From Candidatus Sungiibacteriota bacterium (GTDB lineage: Bacteria; Patescibacteriota; Minisyncoccia; Sungbacterales; JACQCQ01): 64,000 bases of DNA. How positions within the stretch are numbered: the first letter of the stretch is position 1; each line of letters starts with the position of its first letter. Under the pieces are notes generated by a model. The model was not told where the DNA came from, made no database searches, and saw only the letters and a program-made list of their open reading frames with translations. Location: assembly GCA_016201505.1 (NCBI GenBank), contig JACQCQ010000013.1, forward strand, positions 80,830-144,829, given 5' to 3'. Shown here piece after piece: positions 24,753 to 30,624 of the stretch. The translations under genes were made by a program, and so were the position numbers.

Positions 24753-25075
24753 CTTTTGTGTTGCTCAAAAAATTTCCCGCCTTCTCCGCCAGCTGGCAGA
24801 TACGGAAGGGCGCAGCAACTGTTTTATCCCTGAATGAATTCCAACTGTTCCGACTTTGGTCTTCCGAAGCTCCGTGAGGAGCGCAGGAGACCGCGCTGTA
24901 ATGTCCCCATTACAACGACTAGTCTCGGTGTATCGTGTTTCAGCCGTCCGAAGCTCTTGCGAGCGTAGGAGACTTCCGAGACCAAACACGTCTTTGGCTC
25001 GCCGTAGCTCCGTGAGGAGCGTAGACGGCTTTCATTCTCCAGGATGAGATAAGGAGGCGAGGCGCTTGCAGTACT

Positions 25076-26412
25076 TCTAAACGCACCTCGCATAAGGATC
25101 AGGCTTTCGCCTGCTAGATTTCGATCTCGGGCAATCTCCACGCCGCAGGCAAGGTGCACCTCGCCAAAAGCACGTCTCCGCTGCAGCGGAGCAAGACGAC
25201 CCGAGCTCTGTTATCCCGAACATCGGTACGATTTTTTTTTGCGATGCAGATACCGAGGTAGCGGAGGAAGCAGACGCCCAGTAGAGGATCGGGCGAAGGC
25301 ACTACCTACTAGCTAACCCGATCATACGTGATGTCCACCCCCGCGCTTCTCATCACCTTGTCCAGTGATACTCCGCAAGCGCCACGGGATTTCCTGCATC
25401 GCAAACTGAATTTCTATTTTTCCTTATCTCATCCTGGAGTTTTCGCCGCGCCAAAATTTTTATAAATAAAAACTTAGGCGGGCGTCCGACCTTCTAGGAT
25501 CACTGTTCAATCAGTTTGCTAGTTTTCTAGTTGACTAGTTAACTAGTAGGTCGCTAAGCGACCGGAACTGATGAACTGACAGATTCCTAAAAAGAATATG
25601 TTCCATCGACAGCTTCCGCTACCGATGCCTTGTTCATGTTCTCCCTATGTCGCCATAAGGCATGGACTATATCATCACCCTTTGTTGCAATGTCTTGATT
25701 TTTCTCGGATGCCAACTTCCGATAATCTTCAAGAAGTTTTCTTGAGATTTTTTCGAAATAAACATTCGGAAATAATCTGGATCTATGTGGAAACTTGGAT
25801 TATGGATTTTCCCCGATTGGATTCCAAAACTTATCAGCATTTGTTTAAGTTTCTCCAGTTTGATGCGATCATTCTGCACCAGTTGAATGTAAAACCTTGC
25901 GGATGGACTTCTTGGAATTCCTCCCTCGGCATCAAAGAATCCTCTTAAATACGCTATTTTTTCCTCAGCTGAATTTAACCGCTTAGGATCGAATTTTGTA
26001 TCTAAGAATTTTGCTCTTGTTTCCAATACATACACTTTACGATTTCTGCCTTCGCGATATATCCAGGAGGTATTATCCGTTAGCGCTAGGCAAGATTTTA
26101 GTACTGATAACCAATCAGTACCTAGCTGCGCAAACCGGTGTCTTTGGTTATACCGATTGAAGGTGCCATCGTGAAGCGCACCGAGTAAGTATGCTCGGCA
26201 TTCTGCAACAGAAGGGGCTTGGCGTGTAGTCTCTGAGGCGCCTCCGACGTTACGTCGGAGTTGCCTGCTGATTGTCTGCGCTTTTCGCATTATCACTTCT
26301 AGAACTATTTTAGCTCTATAAGTAGCAAAAAGATACTCAGGTTTTCCAGCATATAGCCAAGTTTTTATGTGAGAATTACTCCTCACAAGTCGCAACGGAC
26401 GCAGTCTGCGCC
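25076..26412 (-). mobile_element. About 1.3-kb intron-like insertion near the 16S 3' end (E. coli position about 1506-1520) encoding a LAGLIDADG homing endonuclease.
   Basis: 16S exon sequence (positions about 1400-1505) occupies 26396-26497 and the terminal about 22 nt occupy 25051-25072. The intervening 1.3 kb has no 16S similarity and carries the LAGLIDADG ORF. Confidence 0.6.
25667..26395 (-). CDS. Double-motif LAGLIDADG homing endonuclease (intron-encoded). The track ORF begins with a TTG; the start is uncertain.
   Basis: Two LAGLIDADG-like motifs: LLGALHDGTF and YLRGFFDAEGGI. Length 242 aa. Confidence 0.8.
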   Translation of the reverse strand: MRLVRSNSHIKTWLYAGKPEYLFATYRAKIVLEVIMRKAQTISRQLRRNVGGASETTRQAPSVAECRAYLLGALHDGTFNRYNQRHRFAQLGTDWLSVLKSCLALTDNTSWIYREGRNRKVYVLETRAKFLDTKFDPKRLNSAEEKIAYLRGFFDAEGGIPRSPSARFYIQLVQNDRIKLEKLKQMLISFGIQSGKIHNPSFHIDPDYFRMFISKKSQENFLKIIGSWHPRKIKTLQQRVMI

Positions 26413-26497
26413 TACGACTTCGTCTTTGTCACCGATCCTACCGTGGGCCACCATAAGTGGACTTCGGGTATTACCAGCTCCCCTGACGTGACGGGCG

Positions 26498-27232
26498 GTA
26501 TTAAGATCACTTCTGTGTCTTACACCACTGGGCGAACGGTTTTCCCGTACCCTAGCGGTTTCTTATATCGCTTTCGCGATATAGATTCGTCCCTTCCCGA
26601 GCACATATTTTTGGAGTCTATTGACGAAATTTATCAATAGGTATATAAATTGTATACGAGGAGGTGAAGGATTATGTTGGGTATCGCGGTTCCACCGATC
26701 CCTGCAAACGCGGGTGTCAGTAGCGATCCGGAAGGACTGCTCGCGCTCCTTCTTCTGATGTTCGTCGTTGTTCCGTCAATCATCGTCATTTTCGGCGGCG
26801 CGATCATGGCGAACGTCGAAGACTGAGATCAGCGGACGGCTTTCACCCCCCACAGCGGCCTCCAGGAGGTCGCTTTCAATTTCTCCAAAAATATGTGCTC
26901 GGTACTATGGATTCTGCTGACTTCTCAATAAGCATCAAGATAAAATTGCTTTTATCCTTTACCTTTCGGACTTAATAAGATCTCCTTCGGTCACCGAATA
27001 TACCATTCTCTCACATCTCGATACTCCGTATATAGCGTAAAATTTGTGCAGATGACTTCTCCATGTACTCGAAGGATCGTCGATCTACGCTACCTATTAG
27101 CGAGTATTCAAGCTATAAGACATATACTTTCGCCCTTCATCCTGAGGATCACTCCTCGAAGGACTGCGATTTCATTTCGCGACTTCTGCAAATCGTGGTG
27201 GGATTTAAACCCACTGGCATACTCGGCTGCAA
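26498..27232 (-). other. About 735-nt insertion in 16S at the conserved 1400 region, between GACGGGCGGT and TGTACAAG.
   Basis: Universal 1392 primer-site sequence is split: ...GACGGGCGGT at 26485-26494 and ...GTACAAAGCTCGAGAACGTATTCACC at 27235-27262. Confidence 0.6.
26674..26826 (+). CDS. Candidate 50-aa hydrophobic peptide with a strong Shine-Dalgarno, encoded inside the 16S insertion (antisense to the rRNA).
   Basis: AGGAGGTG is 5 nt upstream of the ATG. Translation MLGIAVPPIPANAGVSSDPEGLLALLLLMFVVVPSIIVIFGGAIMANVED has one predicted TM helix. Confidence 0.3.
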   Translation: MLGIAVPPIPANAGVSSDPEGLLALLLLMFVVVPSIIVIFGGAIMANVED

Positions 27233-27838
27233 AGCACCCGAGTACAAAGCTCGAGAACGTATTCACCGCGGCATAGCTGATCCGCGATTACTAGCGATTC
27301 CATCTTCAAGGAGTCGAGTTGCAGACTCCTATCTGAACTGGGGCGCACTTTGATGGGATTAGCTCCGCCTTGCGGCTTGGCAACCCATTGTATGCGCCAT
27401 TGTAGCACGTGTGTAGCCCAGGGTATCAGAGGGCCATGCTGACCTCGCGTCATCCCCTCCTTCCTCTCCCGAAAAGGAAGCAGTCTCTCCTGACACATAT
27501 AACAGAAGACAAGGGTTGCGTTCGTTAACCCACTTAAGGGAACAGTTCAAACCACGAACTGACGAGGGCCATGCAGCACCTGTGATTGCCGTCTTGTGAA
27601 CACACCGCGGTTTCTCGCGGTTTTTGCAATCATTTCAAACCCTGGTGAGGTTCCTCGGTTGTCATCGAATTGAACCACATGCTCCACCGCTTGTGCGAGC
27701 TCCCGTCTATTCCTTTGAGTTTTAGCCTTGCGGCCGTACTTCCCAGGCGGCAGATTTAACGCGTTAGCTGCGCCACTCCGAGGGTCGATACTCGAAATAG
27801 CTAATCTGCATCGTTTAGGGCGTGGACTACTGGGGTAT

Positions 27839-29332: not shown

Positions 29333-29344
29333 GCTGGCACGAAA

Positions 29345-29995
29345 TTCTACCGCCAATTTGGACTATATCATCACCCCGATGTTCATCGGGGGTCCCGCGT
29401 GTAGTCTCTGAGGGCTCTCTGCTATAAGTTCGATAGACTAGTCTATCGAACTTATAGAAACAGGTTGCCTGCTGATTGTTTCGTTGCGCGTCTTTGCAGT
29501 TTGCAAAACATTTCCGCGGACACAACGAAGTGTTCCAGTCCCGCAAGCCTCCCCACCGCAATACACTGATGTATTGTAGTGGCATGACTCACAGGATTCC
29601 CGAATCCATCTTTTCTTACGGCCAATAGGGCCGCGGGATTGCGATTTGTAACTACTCCGCCTTCGCTAAAAGCTTCGGCGGACAAGTCGTTACACTCGCA
29701 GACAAATCGGGAACATATAGCGAGATTTTCTTATGACGTATTACTACGCCAACTTCGCACCAAGTTTTTCTAACTTCACGAAGTTTGCAGCTTCTTATTC
29801 ATCTGGTACGGTCAGTCGTGCCTCGCTCTAGCGAACCACTCTCAATTTTAAATTTCCAATTTCTAATTTTCAATGAATGTCCTAATGTCTCAATTTCCAA
29901 AGGTTTGGGGTATTGAATCATTAAGAATTGACTGAAAATTGCAAAATTGATCATTGCAAATTGTGTGCCTCACAAAAGTGAGACACGACTTCTTC
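29345..29995 (-). other. About 540 extra nt in the 16S region between E. coli positions about 400 and 515. It contains the operator type 2 palindrome and sequence blocks shared with the LAGLIDADG intron.
   Basis: Blocks GCGTGTAGTCTCTGAGGG (29396-29413) and GTTGCCTGCTGATTGT (29464-29479) also occur at 26222-26238 and 26261-26276 within the LAGLIDADG ORF region. Conserved 16S resumes near 29995 (CTTTACAGACCGAAGTCCTTCTTCCTGCACGCGGCG). Confidence 0.5.
29422..29457. promoter_or_regulatory. Operator type 2, copy d: CTATAAGTTCGATAGACT|AGTCTATCGAACTTATAG, 36-bp perfect palindrome, located inside the 16S insertion.
   Basis: Identical 36/36 to the copy at 35243-35278. Confidence 0.55.
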
Positions 29996-30237
29996 CCAGA
30001 TAAAAGCAGTTTACAGACCGAAGTCCTTCTTCCTGCACGCGGCGTCGCTCGATCAGGCTTTCGCCCATTGTCGAATATTCTCGACTGCAGCCACCCGTAG
30101 GTGTATGAACCGTATCTCAGTTTCATCGTTGGGGATCACGCTCTCACGCCCCCTACCCGTCATAGCCAAGGTGCGCCATTACCACACCTTCTAGCTGATA
30201 GGACCAAGGCTCCTCCCCGAGCGCTCTTGCGAGCTTT

Positions 30238-30296
30238 ACCCCGCCTAAATTTTTGAGCTTTTTCATACTTTCAAAAAGCTCAAAAATTTAGGCGGG
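30238..30296. repeat. 25-bp perfect-stem hairpin expansion in the 16S V1-V2 region.
   Basis: CCCCGCCTAAATTTTTGAGCTTTTT-catactttc-AAAAAGCTCAAAAATTTAGGCGGGG. Confidence 0.5.
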
Positions 30297-30624
30297 GACC
30301 ATTGAGTATTAGCCAATCTTTCGGCTGGTTATTCTCATCTCGGGGGTAGATTCCAAGGTATTACTGAACTCGTTCGCCGCTAACTGGCAAATTGCGCGTA
30401 GCTAATGGAAAATAGTATTGCTACTATAAGCCATCCGCCAATTGCTATAAGCCAATTCGCACGACTTGCATGCCCTATCCACGCCGCCAGCGTTCATCCT
30501 GGACCAGGATCAAATCCTCTAATAGATCAGTTAGTTTTTCAGTTTACTAGTTGCCTAGTTCACATATTGCTAACTGCCGAGAACAAGAGGAAGAAAGAAA
30601 CGAATTTTTAGAAAACTCGCGAAA

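Follow-up and report, generated by a model that had tools for sequence, protein, structure and literature searches.

The stretch of DNA analysed here, referred to below as the window, comprises 64,000 nucleotides (nt) of contig JACQCQ010000013.1 (assembly GCA_016201505.1, Candidatus Sungiibacteriota bacterium), and all positions are those of the window. Its minus strand carries, between 30525 and 25591, what is very probably a genuine bacterial 16S ribosomal RNA (rRNA) gene of Candidatus Sungbacteria (Parcubacteria, of the Candidate Phyla Radiation, CPR) that is interrupted by four introns, three of group I and one of group II, and lengthened by a hairpin in helix 17. The locus is organized as follows:

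30525-25591, minus strand: 16S rRNA gene, 4935 bp (4.94 kb), exons summing to ~1753 nt
30525-29778, minus strand: exon 1, E. coli positions 1-516
29815-29989, minus strand: expansion of helix 17, AT-rich, a single imperfect hairpin of 175 nt
29777-29208, minus strand: group I intron S516, 570 nt, after U516, no open reading frame (ORF)
29207-28936, minus strand: exon 2, E. coli 517-788
28935-27842, minus strand: group I intron S788, 1094 nt, after U788, with large peripheral insertions
27841-27240, minus strand: exon 3, E. coli 789-1397
27239-26500, minus strand: group II (IIC-like) intron, 740 nt, after C1397, no endonuclease gene
26499-26414, minus strand: exon 4, E. coli 1398-1498, located from the rrsH BLAST and from relatives
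26413-25635, minus strand: group I intron S1498, 779 nt, after U1498, guide GCGACUU at 26387-26393
26290-25667, minus strand: LAGLIDADG_3 homing endonuclease gene, 207 aa, motifs LLGALHDG and LRGFFDAEG
25634-25591, minus strand: exon 5, E. coli 1499 to the end, holding helix 45 and the tail
25590-24740, minus strand: 3' trailer, not rRNA, 850 nt, structured (fold z = -6.9)

The Rfam model of bacterial small-subunit rRNA (SSU_rRNA_bacteria, RF00177) matches the minus strand at 30525-28823 (538 bits), at 27923-27198 (521 bits) and in a 3' piece, 25640-25591, that corresponds to model positions 1483-1533, that is, up to the last position of the model; the pieces span model positions 1-1533 in order. 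A BLAST comparison with E. coli rrsH is likewise colinear, covering positions 3-453, 517-788 (29207-28936), 789-1395 (27841-27242), 1398-1424 (26499-26473) and 1499-1541 (25634-25592). The exons are also colinear with those of the intron-poor relatives L004 and L005, which belong to a set of 86 related loci fetched via homologues of the LAGLIDADG protein, and the same insertion hot spots recur across this set. The rRNA gene is therefore split by kilobase-sized segments that are not rRNA, far beyond what chance would give. L004 serves as a natural control, as it lacks the three upstream introns and has only the S1498 intron; its uninterrupted junctions join CGTG to CCAGCAGCC (at the S516 site), GGGAT to TAGATACC (S788) and GTACTC to ACCGCCC (1397), and with such intron-less relatives as controls the exact junctions in the window are unambiguous. 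The predicted joining of the exons restores the universal motifs GUGCCAGCAGCCGCGGUAA, GGAUUAGAUACCCC (or GGAUUAGAUACCC) and AAGUCGUAACAAGG, as well as GUACUCACCGCCCGU, the CPR variant of the 1392-1406 motif, whose A1396U change is also present in L004. Rfam and tRNA searches detected no large-subunit (23S) rRNA, 5S rRNA or tRNA genes in the window, so that the 16S gene is unlinked from 23S, and it is the single 16S gene visible within these 64 kb.

A first-pass annotation, made from the sequence, had described 16S blocks in the right order on the minus strand, separated by large non-rRNA segments, and this is borne out by the covariance-model pieces, the E. coli BLAST and the relatives. Its description of the gene as a CPR-type, intron-rich, unlinked 16S with a double-motif LAGLIDADG intron is also upheld, by Pfam, by a fold match and by the lack of a large-subunit gene in the window. 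The large insertions among the five that it listed are real, although three of the five had been mis-delimited. What it took for a 128-nt hairpin in the 530 loop and a separate insertion of 540 nt between positions 400 and 515 is one 570-nt intron after U516 that ends in that hairpin (inverted repeat I4), plus a separate 162-nt insertion in helix 17. Its 1.3-kb insertion near 1506-1520 does contain the LAGLIDADG intron, but only 779 nt after U1498 belong to it, the remaining ~540 nt being non-rRNA trailer. The 1.1-kb insertion reported after the 785-805 site exists and sits within that site, after U788. The insertion classes, which had been left to intron models, are three group I introns (S788 without an Rfam match), one group II intron and one helix-17 hairpin. 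The sequence blocks that had been seen to recur among the insertions correspond to core elements of group I introns, since the repeat-finder families D1, D3 and D5 are the core blocks CUCAGAGACUACACG, ACAAUCAGCAGG and GAUGAUAUAGUCC, and to two genome-wide repeats described below.

The intron parts that the following paragraphs refer to are:

29752-29758, minus strand: guide GCGAAGU of S516
29423-29456, minus strand: palindrome forming P6 of S516
29201-29339, minus strand: 3' hairpin of S516
28605-28610, minus strand: candidate guide GUCCCG of S788
28334-28612, minus strand: orphan ORF in the P5 loop of S788, 50/92 codons
28063-28245, minus strand: orphan ORF in the P6 loop of S788, 60 codons
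28041-28061, minus strand: core R element of S788
~27965-27979, minus strand: S element of S788
27070-27065, minus strand: exon-binding site 1 (EBS1) of the group II intron, GAGUAC
26960-26884, minus strand: D1D4-1 motif of the group II intron
26597-26902, minus strand: peripheral group II stem, its arms pairing perfectly over 20 bp around 266 nt (inverted repeat I6)
26559-26524, minus strand: domain V of the group II intron
26521-26500, minus strand: domain VI of the group II intron, bulged A at 26507

All three group I introns follow a U at position -1 of the 5' exon, end in G and place that exonic U in a U-G pair with the guide, the pairings being ACUUCGU/GCGAAGU in S516, AAGUCGU/GCGACUU in S1498 and UGGGAU/GUCCCG in S788. 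The core blocks GCUAUAUGCUGGAA, ACAAUCAGCAGG, CUCAGAGACUACACG and GAUAUAGUCC, which correspond to the classical P, Q, R and S elements, occur in the same order in each of them. The Rfam model of group I introns (Intron_gpI, RF00028, gathering score 50) matches S1498 at 26423-25643 with 59.5 bits and thus passes the threshold, and homologous introns occupy the same site in the 86 loci. S788 is assigned to group I because it is homologous to a canonical 349-nt intron found at an identical site in L047, which scores 87.6 bits with Intron_gpI; four blocks of the L047 intron (P3-P5, Q, R and S-P9) are colinear in S788, with 81-95% identity, and its P7 shows a two-sided compensatory change (GACUG/CAGUC versus GACUA/UAGUC). 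The candidate guide of S788, about 325 nt downstream of the splice site, was assigned by analogy with L047. The extra ~700 nt of S788 are peripheral and lie in a ~320-nt P1 loop (which contains the 19-bp and 32-bp inverted repeats I8 and I1), in the P5 loop and in the P6 loop. The two ORFs of these last loops have no Pfam match and found only themselves among 5.8 billion proteins, as the GenBank hypothetical proteins HY220_04190 and HY220_04195; these two annotations (28063-28245 and 28334-28486) may be artefacts of the unrecognised rRNA gene. In position, S516 and S788 correspond to group I introns of eukaryotic nuclear rDNA, which lie at these same sites in the 530 and 790 loops, although the host of the window's introns is bacterial.

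The insertion after C1397 shows the anatomy of a group II intron; a group I intron was ruled out at this site, where the exon ends in C and the intron in U. The Rfam model group-II-D1D4-1 (RF01998) matches it at 26960-26884 with 36 bits, against a gathering score of 35, and matches introns of relatives with 36.8-58.2 bits. Clean homologous insertions of 403-989 nt are found at positions 1395-1399 in 28 of the 86 related loci, and an alignment of ten introns that share the 1397 site (that of the window and nine homologues) reveals conserved blocks in domains I-III, the RF01998 motif included. In this alignment, domain V is the hairpin ACCGCUAGGGUACGG-GAAAA-CCGU-UC-GCCCAGUGGU, with a CGC triad whose central G-U is invariant and a U-G beneath the 2-nt bulge. 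All of its 140 cells (14 pairs in 10 introns) are paired and 5 of the 14 pairs show compensatory changes, a result that no shuffle or slid register comes close to. Another hairpin, capped by GAAA at 26565-26595, had been a candidate for domain V and was dropped in favour of the conserved one at 26524-26559 once the relatives were aligned. Domain VI reads UAAGA-CAC-AGAA-GUG-[A]-UCUUA-AU, with the bulged A at -8 (26507) and the 3' end of the intron at AU, and both parts of its helix covary (AAGA/UCUU, GGGA/UCCC and GAGA/UCUC; L016, L019 and L061). The CGC triad is a class IIC trait, known from the structure of the Oceanobacillus iheyensis intron. No EBS2 was noticed, without a search aimed at one, which would agree with class IIC.

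Recognition of the 5' exon can be followed through the relatives as well. The EBS1 loop GAGUAC can pair with GUACUC, the six bases that end the exon; in L019, where the exon reads GUACAC, the loop reads GUGUAC, and among the 28 related introns those at site 1398 have the loop GGUGAGU, matching ACUCA, and those at site 1399 have GGUGGUGAG, matching CUCAC. The loop thus tracks both the exon sequence and the insertion site, as would be expected if the introns recognise the exon through EBS1 and its intron-binding site 1 (IBS1). Group II introns are thus found at four adjacent 16S positions, after 1395, 1397, 1398 and 1399 (28 loci among L012-L080), with EBS1 retargeted in each case; their size, within the 403-989 nt range, depends on the presence of a LAGLIDADG gene, and a match to the domain V-VI model RF00029 was found in none of those tested. 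In relatives, this gene lies upstream of domain V and encodes a 183-187-aa, single-motif protein of LAGLIDADG_1 type, and the window copy of the intron has none. A separate observation concerns the closest relative, in which an unrelated, group-II-like insertion of 727 nt (L007 598-1324, also in L008) is placed after C1399, 2 nt beyond the site used in the window. The middle of this element holds a hairpin that looks like a canonical domain V (CCGCCGUAUGCGG GAAA GCCGCACGUACGG), followed by a sense-strand ORF of 77 aa with two predicted transmembrane segments, a GGGAGGG site and a terminator hairpin, an arrangement unlike the usual order of domains.

The product of the S1498 ORF matches Pfam PF14528 (E 4.6e-13). 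It is 100% identical to an NCBI protein from a metagenome-assembled genome (MAG) of Candidatus Sungbacteria and has more than 1000 homologues which, where named, belong to Parcubacteria or other CPR. An AlphaFold2 model built with 22 homologues (mean predicted local distance difference test, pLDDT, 87.8) has two alpha-beta-beta-alpha-beta-beta halves, and its top structural matches are to I-DmoI (E 1.5e-9, ~185 of 207 residues, template modelling score ~0.6-0.7); a search of the PDB by sequence gave nothing useful, and the match came from the fold search. In the model, the enzyme is a pseudo-symmetric, I-DmoI-like monomer with two LAGLIDADG helices that end in acidic residues, and these residues, D41 and E122, are invariant in the 22 homologues. 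I-DmoI, from the 23S rRNA intron of Desulfurococcus mobilis, is also a small monomeric double-motif enzyme encoded in an rRNA intron. The two share only 17-21% sequence identity, and whereas I-DmoI resides in an archaeal bulge-helix-bulge intron, the window enzyme resides in a group I intron, where its ORF runs through P6, P7 and P3' into the P8 loop and its first ~22 codons overlap the ribozyme core. These codons (1-22, 26225-26290) read through P6-P7, and the stretch that they encode is disordered in the model; within it, the family-invariant S19-E20-T21 is the translation of the conserved RNA core element UCAGAGACUAC. The putative cleavage target of the enzyme would be the intron-less junction of GAAGUCGU with AACAAGG, also written as GACGAAGUCGU joined to AACAAGGCAUCGG.

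Several points weigh against this reading of the locus. S516 scores only 27.1 bits with Intron_gpI (E 7.5e-4), under the gathering score, and S788, searched alone in Rfam at E up to 10, gave no group I match; with its ~700 nt of peripheral insertions, S788 may be catalytically dead. In the case of the group II intron, RF00029 (domains V-VI) finds no match at E up to 1, no reverse transcriptase or maturase ORF is present according to the ORF list and Pfam, and the 5' end reads GGGUGC instead of GUGYG, the introns of relatives beginning with GGGUCGCC, GAGUUGCC or AAAUAAAUGCGCC. The analysis covers 64 kb, and a second, uninterrupted 16S copy may be present elsewhere in the genome. Finally, while the sequence shows the order of the exons, the junctions, the ribozyme hallmarks, the covariation and the fold of the endonuclease, splicing, homing and co-transcription are predictions.

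The gene would be transcribed, probably, as one ~5.8-kb precursor that starts downstream of a terminator at 30642-30677 and ends near a hairpin at 24740. The group I ribozymes after U516, U788 and U1498 would pair their guides with the 3' end of the exon before them; guanosine, as cofactor, would then attack at the U-G pair, and exon ligation would follow with the help of the G that ends the intron. The group II intron would recognise GUACUC through its EBS1 loop and splice by means of the CGC triad in domain V and of the A bulged out of domain VI, the ligated product being a 16S rRNA of ~1.75 kb. The S1498 endonuclease may cut intron-less 16S alleles, allowing this intron to spread by homing. 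The group II intron, having lost the single-motif LAGLIDADG gene of its relatives, is presumably immobile, and together with S516, which has no ORF, and S788, with orphan ORFs only, it would be inherited passively.

An alternative, unlikely but more probable than the others considered, is that RNases, RNase III for example, excise some of the insertions without religation, chiefly that of helix 17 and possibly S788, which would leave a fragmented 16S rRNA. The helix 17 insertion is a single 175-nt hairpin without ribozyme features (-65.5 kcal/mol, z = -7.5), which in the Rfam alignment places 162 nt (29820-29981) at model position ~458, instead of a 6-nt loop, and it has the shape of RNase III-type intervening sequences, that is, a long helix at the tip of a variable loop. 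Several insertions contain near-perfect stems of 19-32 bp of RNase III type (I1, I6 and I8), S788 lacks an Rfam group I match, and insertions of the intervening-sequence type have been suggested to occur in CPR too (PMC11270868). Against this alternative, S788 has all the core blocks, the U at -1, the terminal G and a guide, and is the homologue of a canonical intron at the same site; unligated cuts in the 790 loop or in the decoding centre would break universally conserved functional sequences; and the ribozyme evidence for S516, S1498 and the group II intron is strong. Splicing thus remains the preferred reading for the four introns, while the helix 17 hairpin could either be kept as an expansion segment or be trimmed by RNase III. 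In relatives, insertions of 116-385 nt map within helix 17 and larger ones, of 503-927 nt, span it. Exon 1 contains smaller expansions as well, of ~62 nt in V1 and of 38 nt in V2 in the Rfam alignment, with a perfect 25-bp hairpin (30239-30297, I3) at V2.

An rRNA pseudogene in decay, or a chimera created by the assembly, is a very improbable explanation of the locus, even though eight junctions in a single gene are extreme, rRNA regions are error-prone in MAG assemblies and public short-read contigs end nearby, at 24717. The stretches 29042-27812 and 25605-27265 are found with 100% identity in independent Logan assemblies of run SRR12113410, which reproduce 6 of the 8 intron junctions, namely both of S788, of the group II intron and of S1498, which makes a chimera very unlikely. 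The exons are 93% identical to those of the nearest relative (L007-L009), compared with 81-83% for the S1498 intron that both share, and the insertion at 1397/1399 is filled in that relative with a sequence unrelated to that of the window. Predicted splicing restores every universal motif, and multiply interrupted 16S genes are common in CPR, where the insertions of a 16S gene can total as much as 5.6 kb and a single rRNA gene can hold as many as 16 (PMC11270868).

The least probable proposal, hardly credible on present evidence, is that the gene runs to 25051 and holds an extra ~545-nt insertion between helix 45 and an anti-Shine-Dalgarno (anti-SD) tail, UCGCCUCCUUA: although CGCCTCCTTA is found at 25046-25055 and a few ORFs of the region have strong GGAGG sites, the last Rfam model positions (1483-1533) fall on 25640-25591, the closest relative has an identical tail without CCUCC right after helix 45 where more distant relatives have CACCUCCUUU, a GGAG-like site precedes only ~6 of the 50 long ORFs in the window, a 19-bp perfect inverted repeat (I7) has the CCTCC at 25055 in one of its arms, and neither intron features nor Rfam matches were found in 25590-25051. 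The first-pass annotation had adopted this extent (25051-30517, ~5.5 kb), placing the 3' end at CCUCC on the assumption of a tail motif that this lineage lacks; the gene is instead 4.94 kb long, at 30525-25591, and 25590-25051 is part of a transcribed-looking trailer. The sequence directly after helix 45 (25591-25612) is GGAACAUAUUCUUUUUAGG, identical in L007-L009, while L005 has GGAUCACCUCCUUUCUAAGG (GGAUCACCUCCUUU) at the same place. CCUCC is absent from 63 of 81 related CPR loci, and the count of GGAG-like sites upstream of ORFs given above comes from a crude gene call. As the anti-SD motif has been lost in about half of Parcubacteria (PMC9297842), its absence is a known trait of many members of the group and no argument against 16S membership.

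The trailer contains, in addition to the 19-bp perfect inverted repeats of I7 (25421-25439 and 25037-25055), a hairpin module, GCUCCUCACGGAGC, that occurs twice (24851-24886 and 24989-25024), and ends in a bidirectional terminator-like hairpin at 24710-24780. Searched alone in Rfam, it matched only the 16S 3' end and terminator look-alikes, and it shares only short blocks with L009, two of them conserved (L009 1015-1130, corresponding to window 24940-24822). The 19-bp repeats were considered as transposon ends and this was dropped, as no further copies exist in the window. Pairing between leader and trailer as a processing stem was also set aside as marginal (-58.4 kcal/mol, compared with -40.9 +/- 5.7 kcal/mol for shuffles, the best of which reached -57.6). 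On the other side of the gene, a 16-bp GC-rich hairpin followed by a T-run (30642-30677), located 117 nt before the 16S gene begins, presumably terminates transcription of the minus-strand gene that precedes it (30979-31386). The rRNA promoter would then have to fit into only about 100 nt, an interval in which no sigma-70 consensus was detected.

CPR 16S genes with insertions have been surveyed before. Among 380 such genes, 48% contained insertions (Tsurumaki et al. 2024, J Bacteriol, PMC11270868). In that survey, several conserved positions of the gene carry group I introns, variable regions hold short insertions of uncharacterised type, and group-II-like introns occur only at about position 1400, in 53 cases, of which 39 carry LAGLIDADG genes and 14 have no ORFs, with no reverse transcriptase; it also records LAGLIDADG_3 genes only in 16S insertions and cites Brown et al. 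2015 for the removal of CPR insertions from transcripts. The window gene agrees with this set in having group I introns at conserved 16S sites, in its group-II-like intron at ~1400, in its LAGLIDADG_3 gene, also known there from the 3'-most site, in its variable-helix insertion and in its Parcubacteria host. Compared with this set, the window gene combines four introns (at 516, 788, 1397 and 1498) and a hairpin, and the LAGLIDADG_1 gene that is usual in such group II introns is missing from its own, which has an antisense mini-ORF cassette instead; none of this is a categorical difference. Each component therefore has a published CPR counterpart, and the gene is an unusually crowded case with nothing new in kind.

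A further parallel comes from Thiomargarita, in which a group II intron of class IIC, found at 16S position 1396, encodes a single-motif LAGLIDADG protein (Salman et al. 2012, as cited in PMC13190283). This rns-1396 intron of Thiomargarita and other Thiotrichaceae occupies essentially the same 16S site as that of the window, and the 183-187-aa LAGLIDADG gene of the window's relatives is alike; the window intron differs in its CPR host, in the lack of an endonuclease gene and in its GGGUG 5' end. Bacterial LAGLIDADG-type group II introns have been stated to be confined to Thiotrichaceae (PMC13190283, 2026), and an RF00029 scan reported Patescibacteria to be without group II introns (PMC13011429, 2026). 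Both statements conflict with the 53 cases of PMC11270868. The conflict arises because RF00029 misses these introns, while RF01998 detects them.

Compact and well delimited, the locus is an example of introns of both groups, three of group I and one of group II, in a single gene, and its relatives provide clean covariation for domain V and for EBS1 retargeting at sites 1395-1400. An organism with such a gene would be invisible or misread in 16S surveys, as the sites of primers 806R, 1392R and 1492R are split and that of 515F loses two bases. Interruption of primer sites had been pointed out at first for 519 and 1392: that of 1392R is indeed interrupted, as are those of 515F, 806R and 1492R, but that of 519R (519-536) is intact. 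Within the gene, automatic annotation has placed hypothetical proteins (HY220_04190 and HY220_04195), and searching for a CCUCC tail misplaces its 3' end.

Within the group II intron, the peripheral stem of 26597-26902 encloses an antisense gene candidate:

26674-26826, plus strand: antisense hydrophobic ORF, 50 codons

The homologous stem of relatives is short (CCGAUCG...CGAUCGG, then GAAGGAAC) and has grown to 20 perfect bp in the window. The ORF is preceded by a promoter-like motif, TTGACG-17-TATAAA, and by a perfect ribosome-binding site, GGAGGTGA, and followed by a terminator-like hairpin with a T-run (26854-26874). It matched only itself among 1.84 billion representative proteins and has no Pfam match, and the base composition of the cassette is not unusual in a way that would indicate a foreign origin. 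Searches of 88 loci by tblastn and tblastx with this ORF and the two of S788 found nothing. The antisense ORF is an orphan and may be spurious. A speculative and improbable interpretation would be that the 266-nt loop is an autonomous antisense gene, whose mRNA would be fully complementary to the rRNA precursor and to the excised intron, and which might act as a type-I-toxin-like or addiction-like passenger, helping an intron without an endonuclease to persist in a host without an anti-SD.

Two repeats are dispersed through the window and extend into the introns. The first is a 34-bp perfect palindrome (TATAAGTTCGATAGAC TA GTCTATCGAACTTATA), with 5 copies against 0.3 expected:

15686-15719: palindrome copy
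16148-16181: palindrome copy
20417-20450: palindrome copy
29423-29456: palindrome copy, P6 of S516
35244-35277: palindrome copy

The four other than that of S516 are intergenic, upstream of minus-strand genes, and have no T-run; judged by this arrangement, the palindrome looks like an operator. The second repeat forms AT-rich arrays of the TTCGGATTTAGAAATT type, with 16 occurrences against 1.5 expected:

27865-27923: AT-rich array
29843-29900: AT-rich array
38568-38607: AT-rich array
46832-46967: AT-rich array
56459-56590: AT-rich array
58913-59044: AT-rich array
59441-59554: AT-rich array

These arrays are intergenic and lie just upstream of genes, and they also form the last ~80 nt of S788 and some of the expanded helix 17; either a promoter-like element or a repeat dispersed through the genome may be involved.

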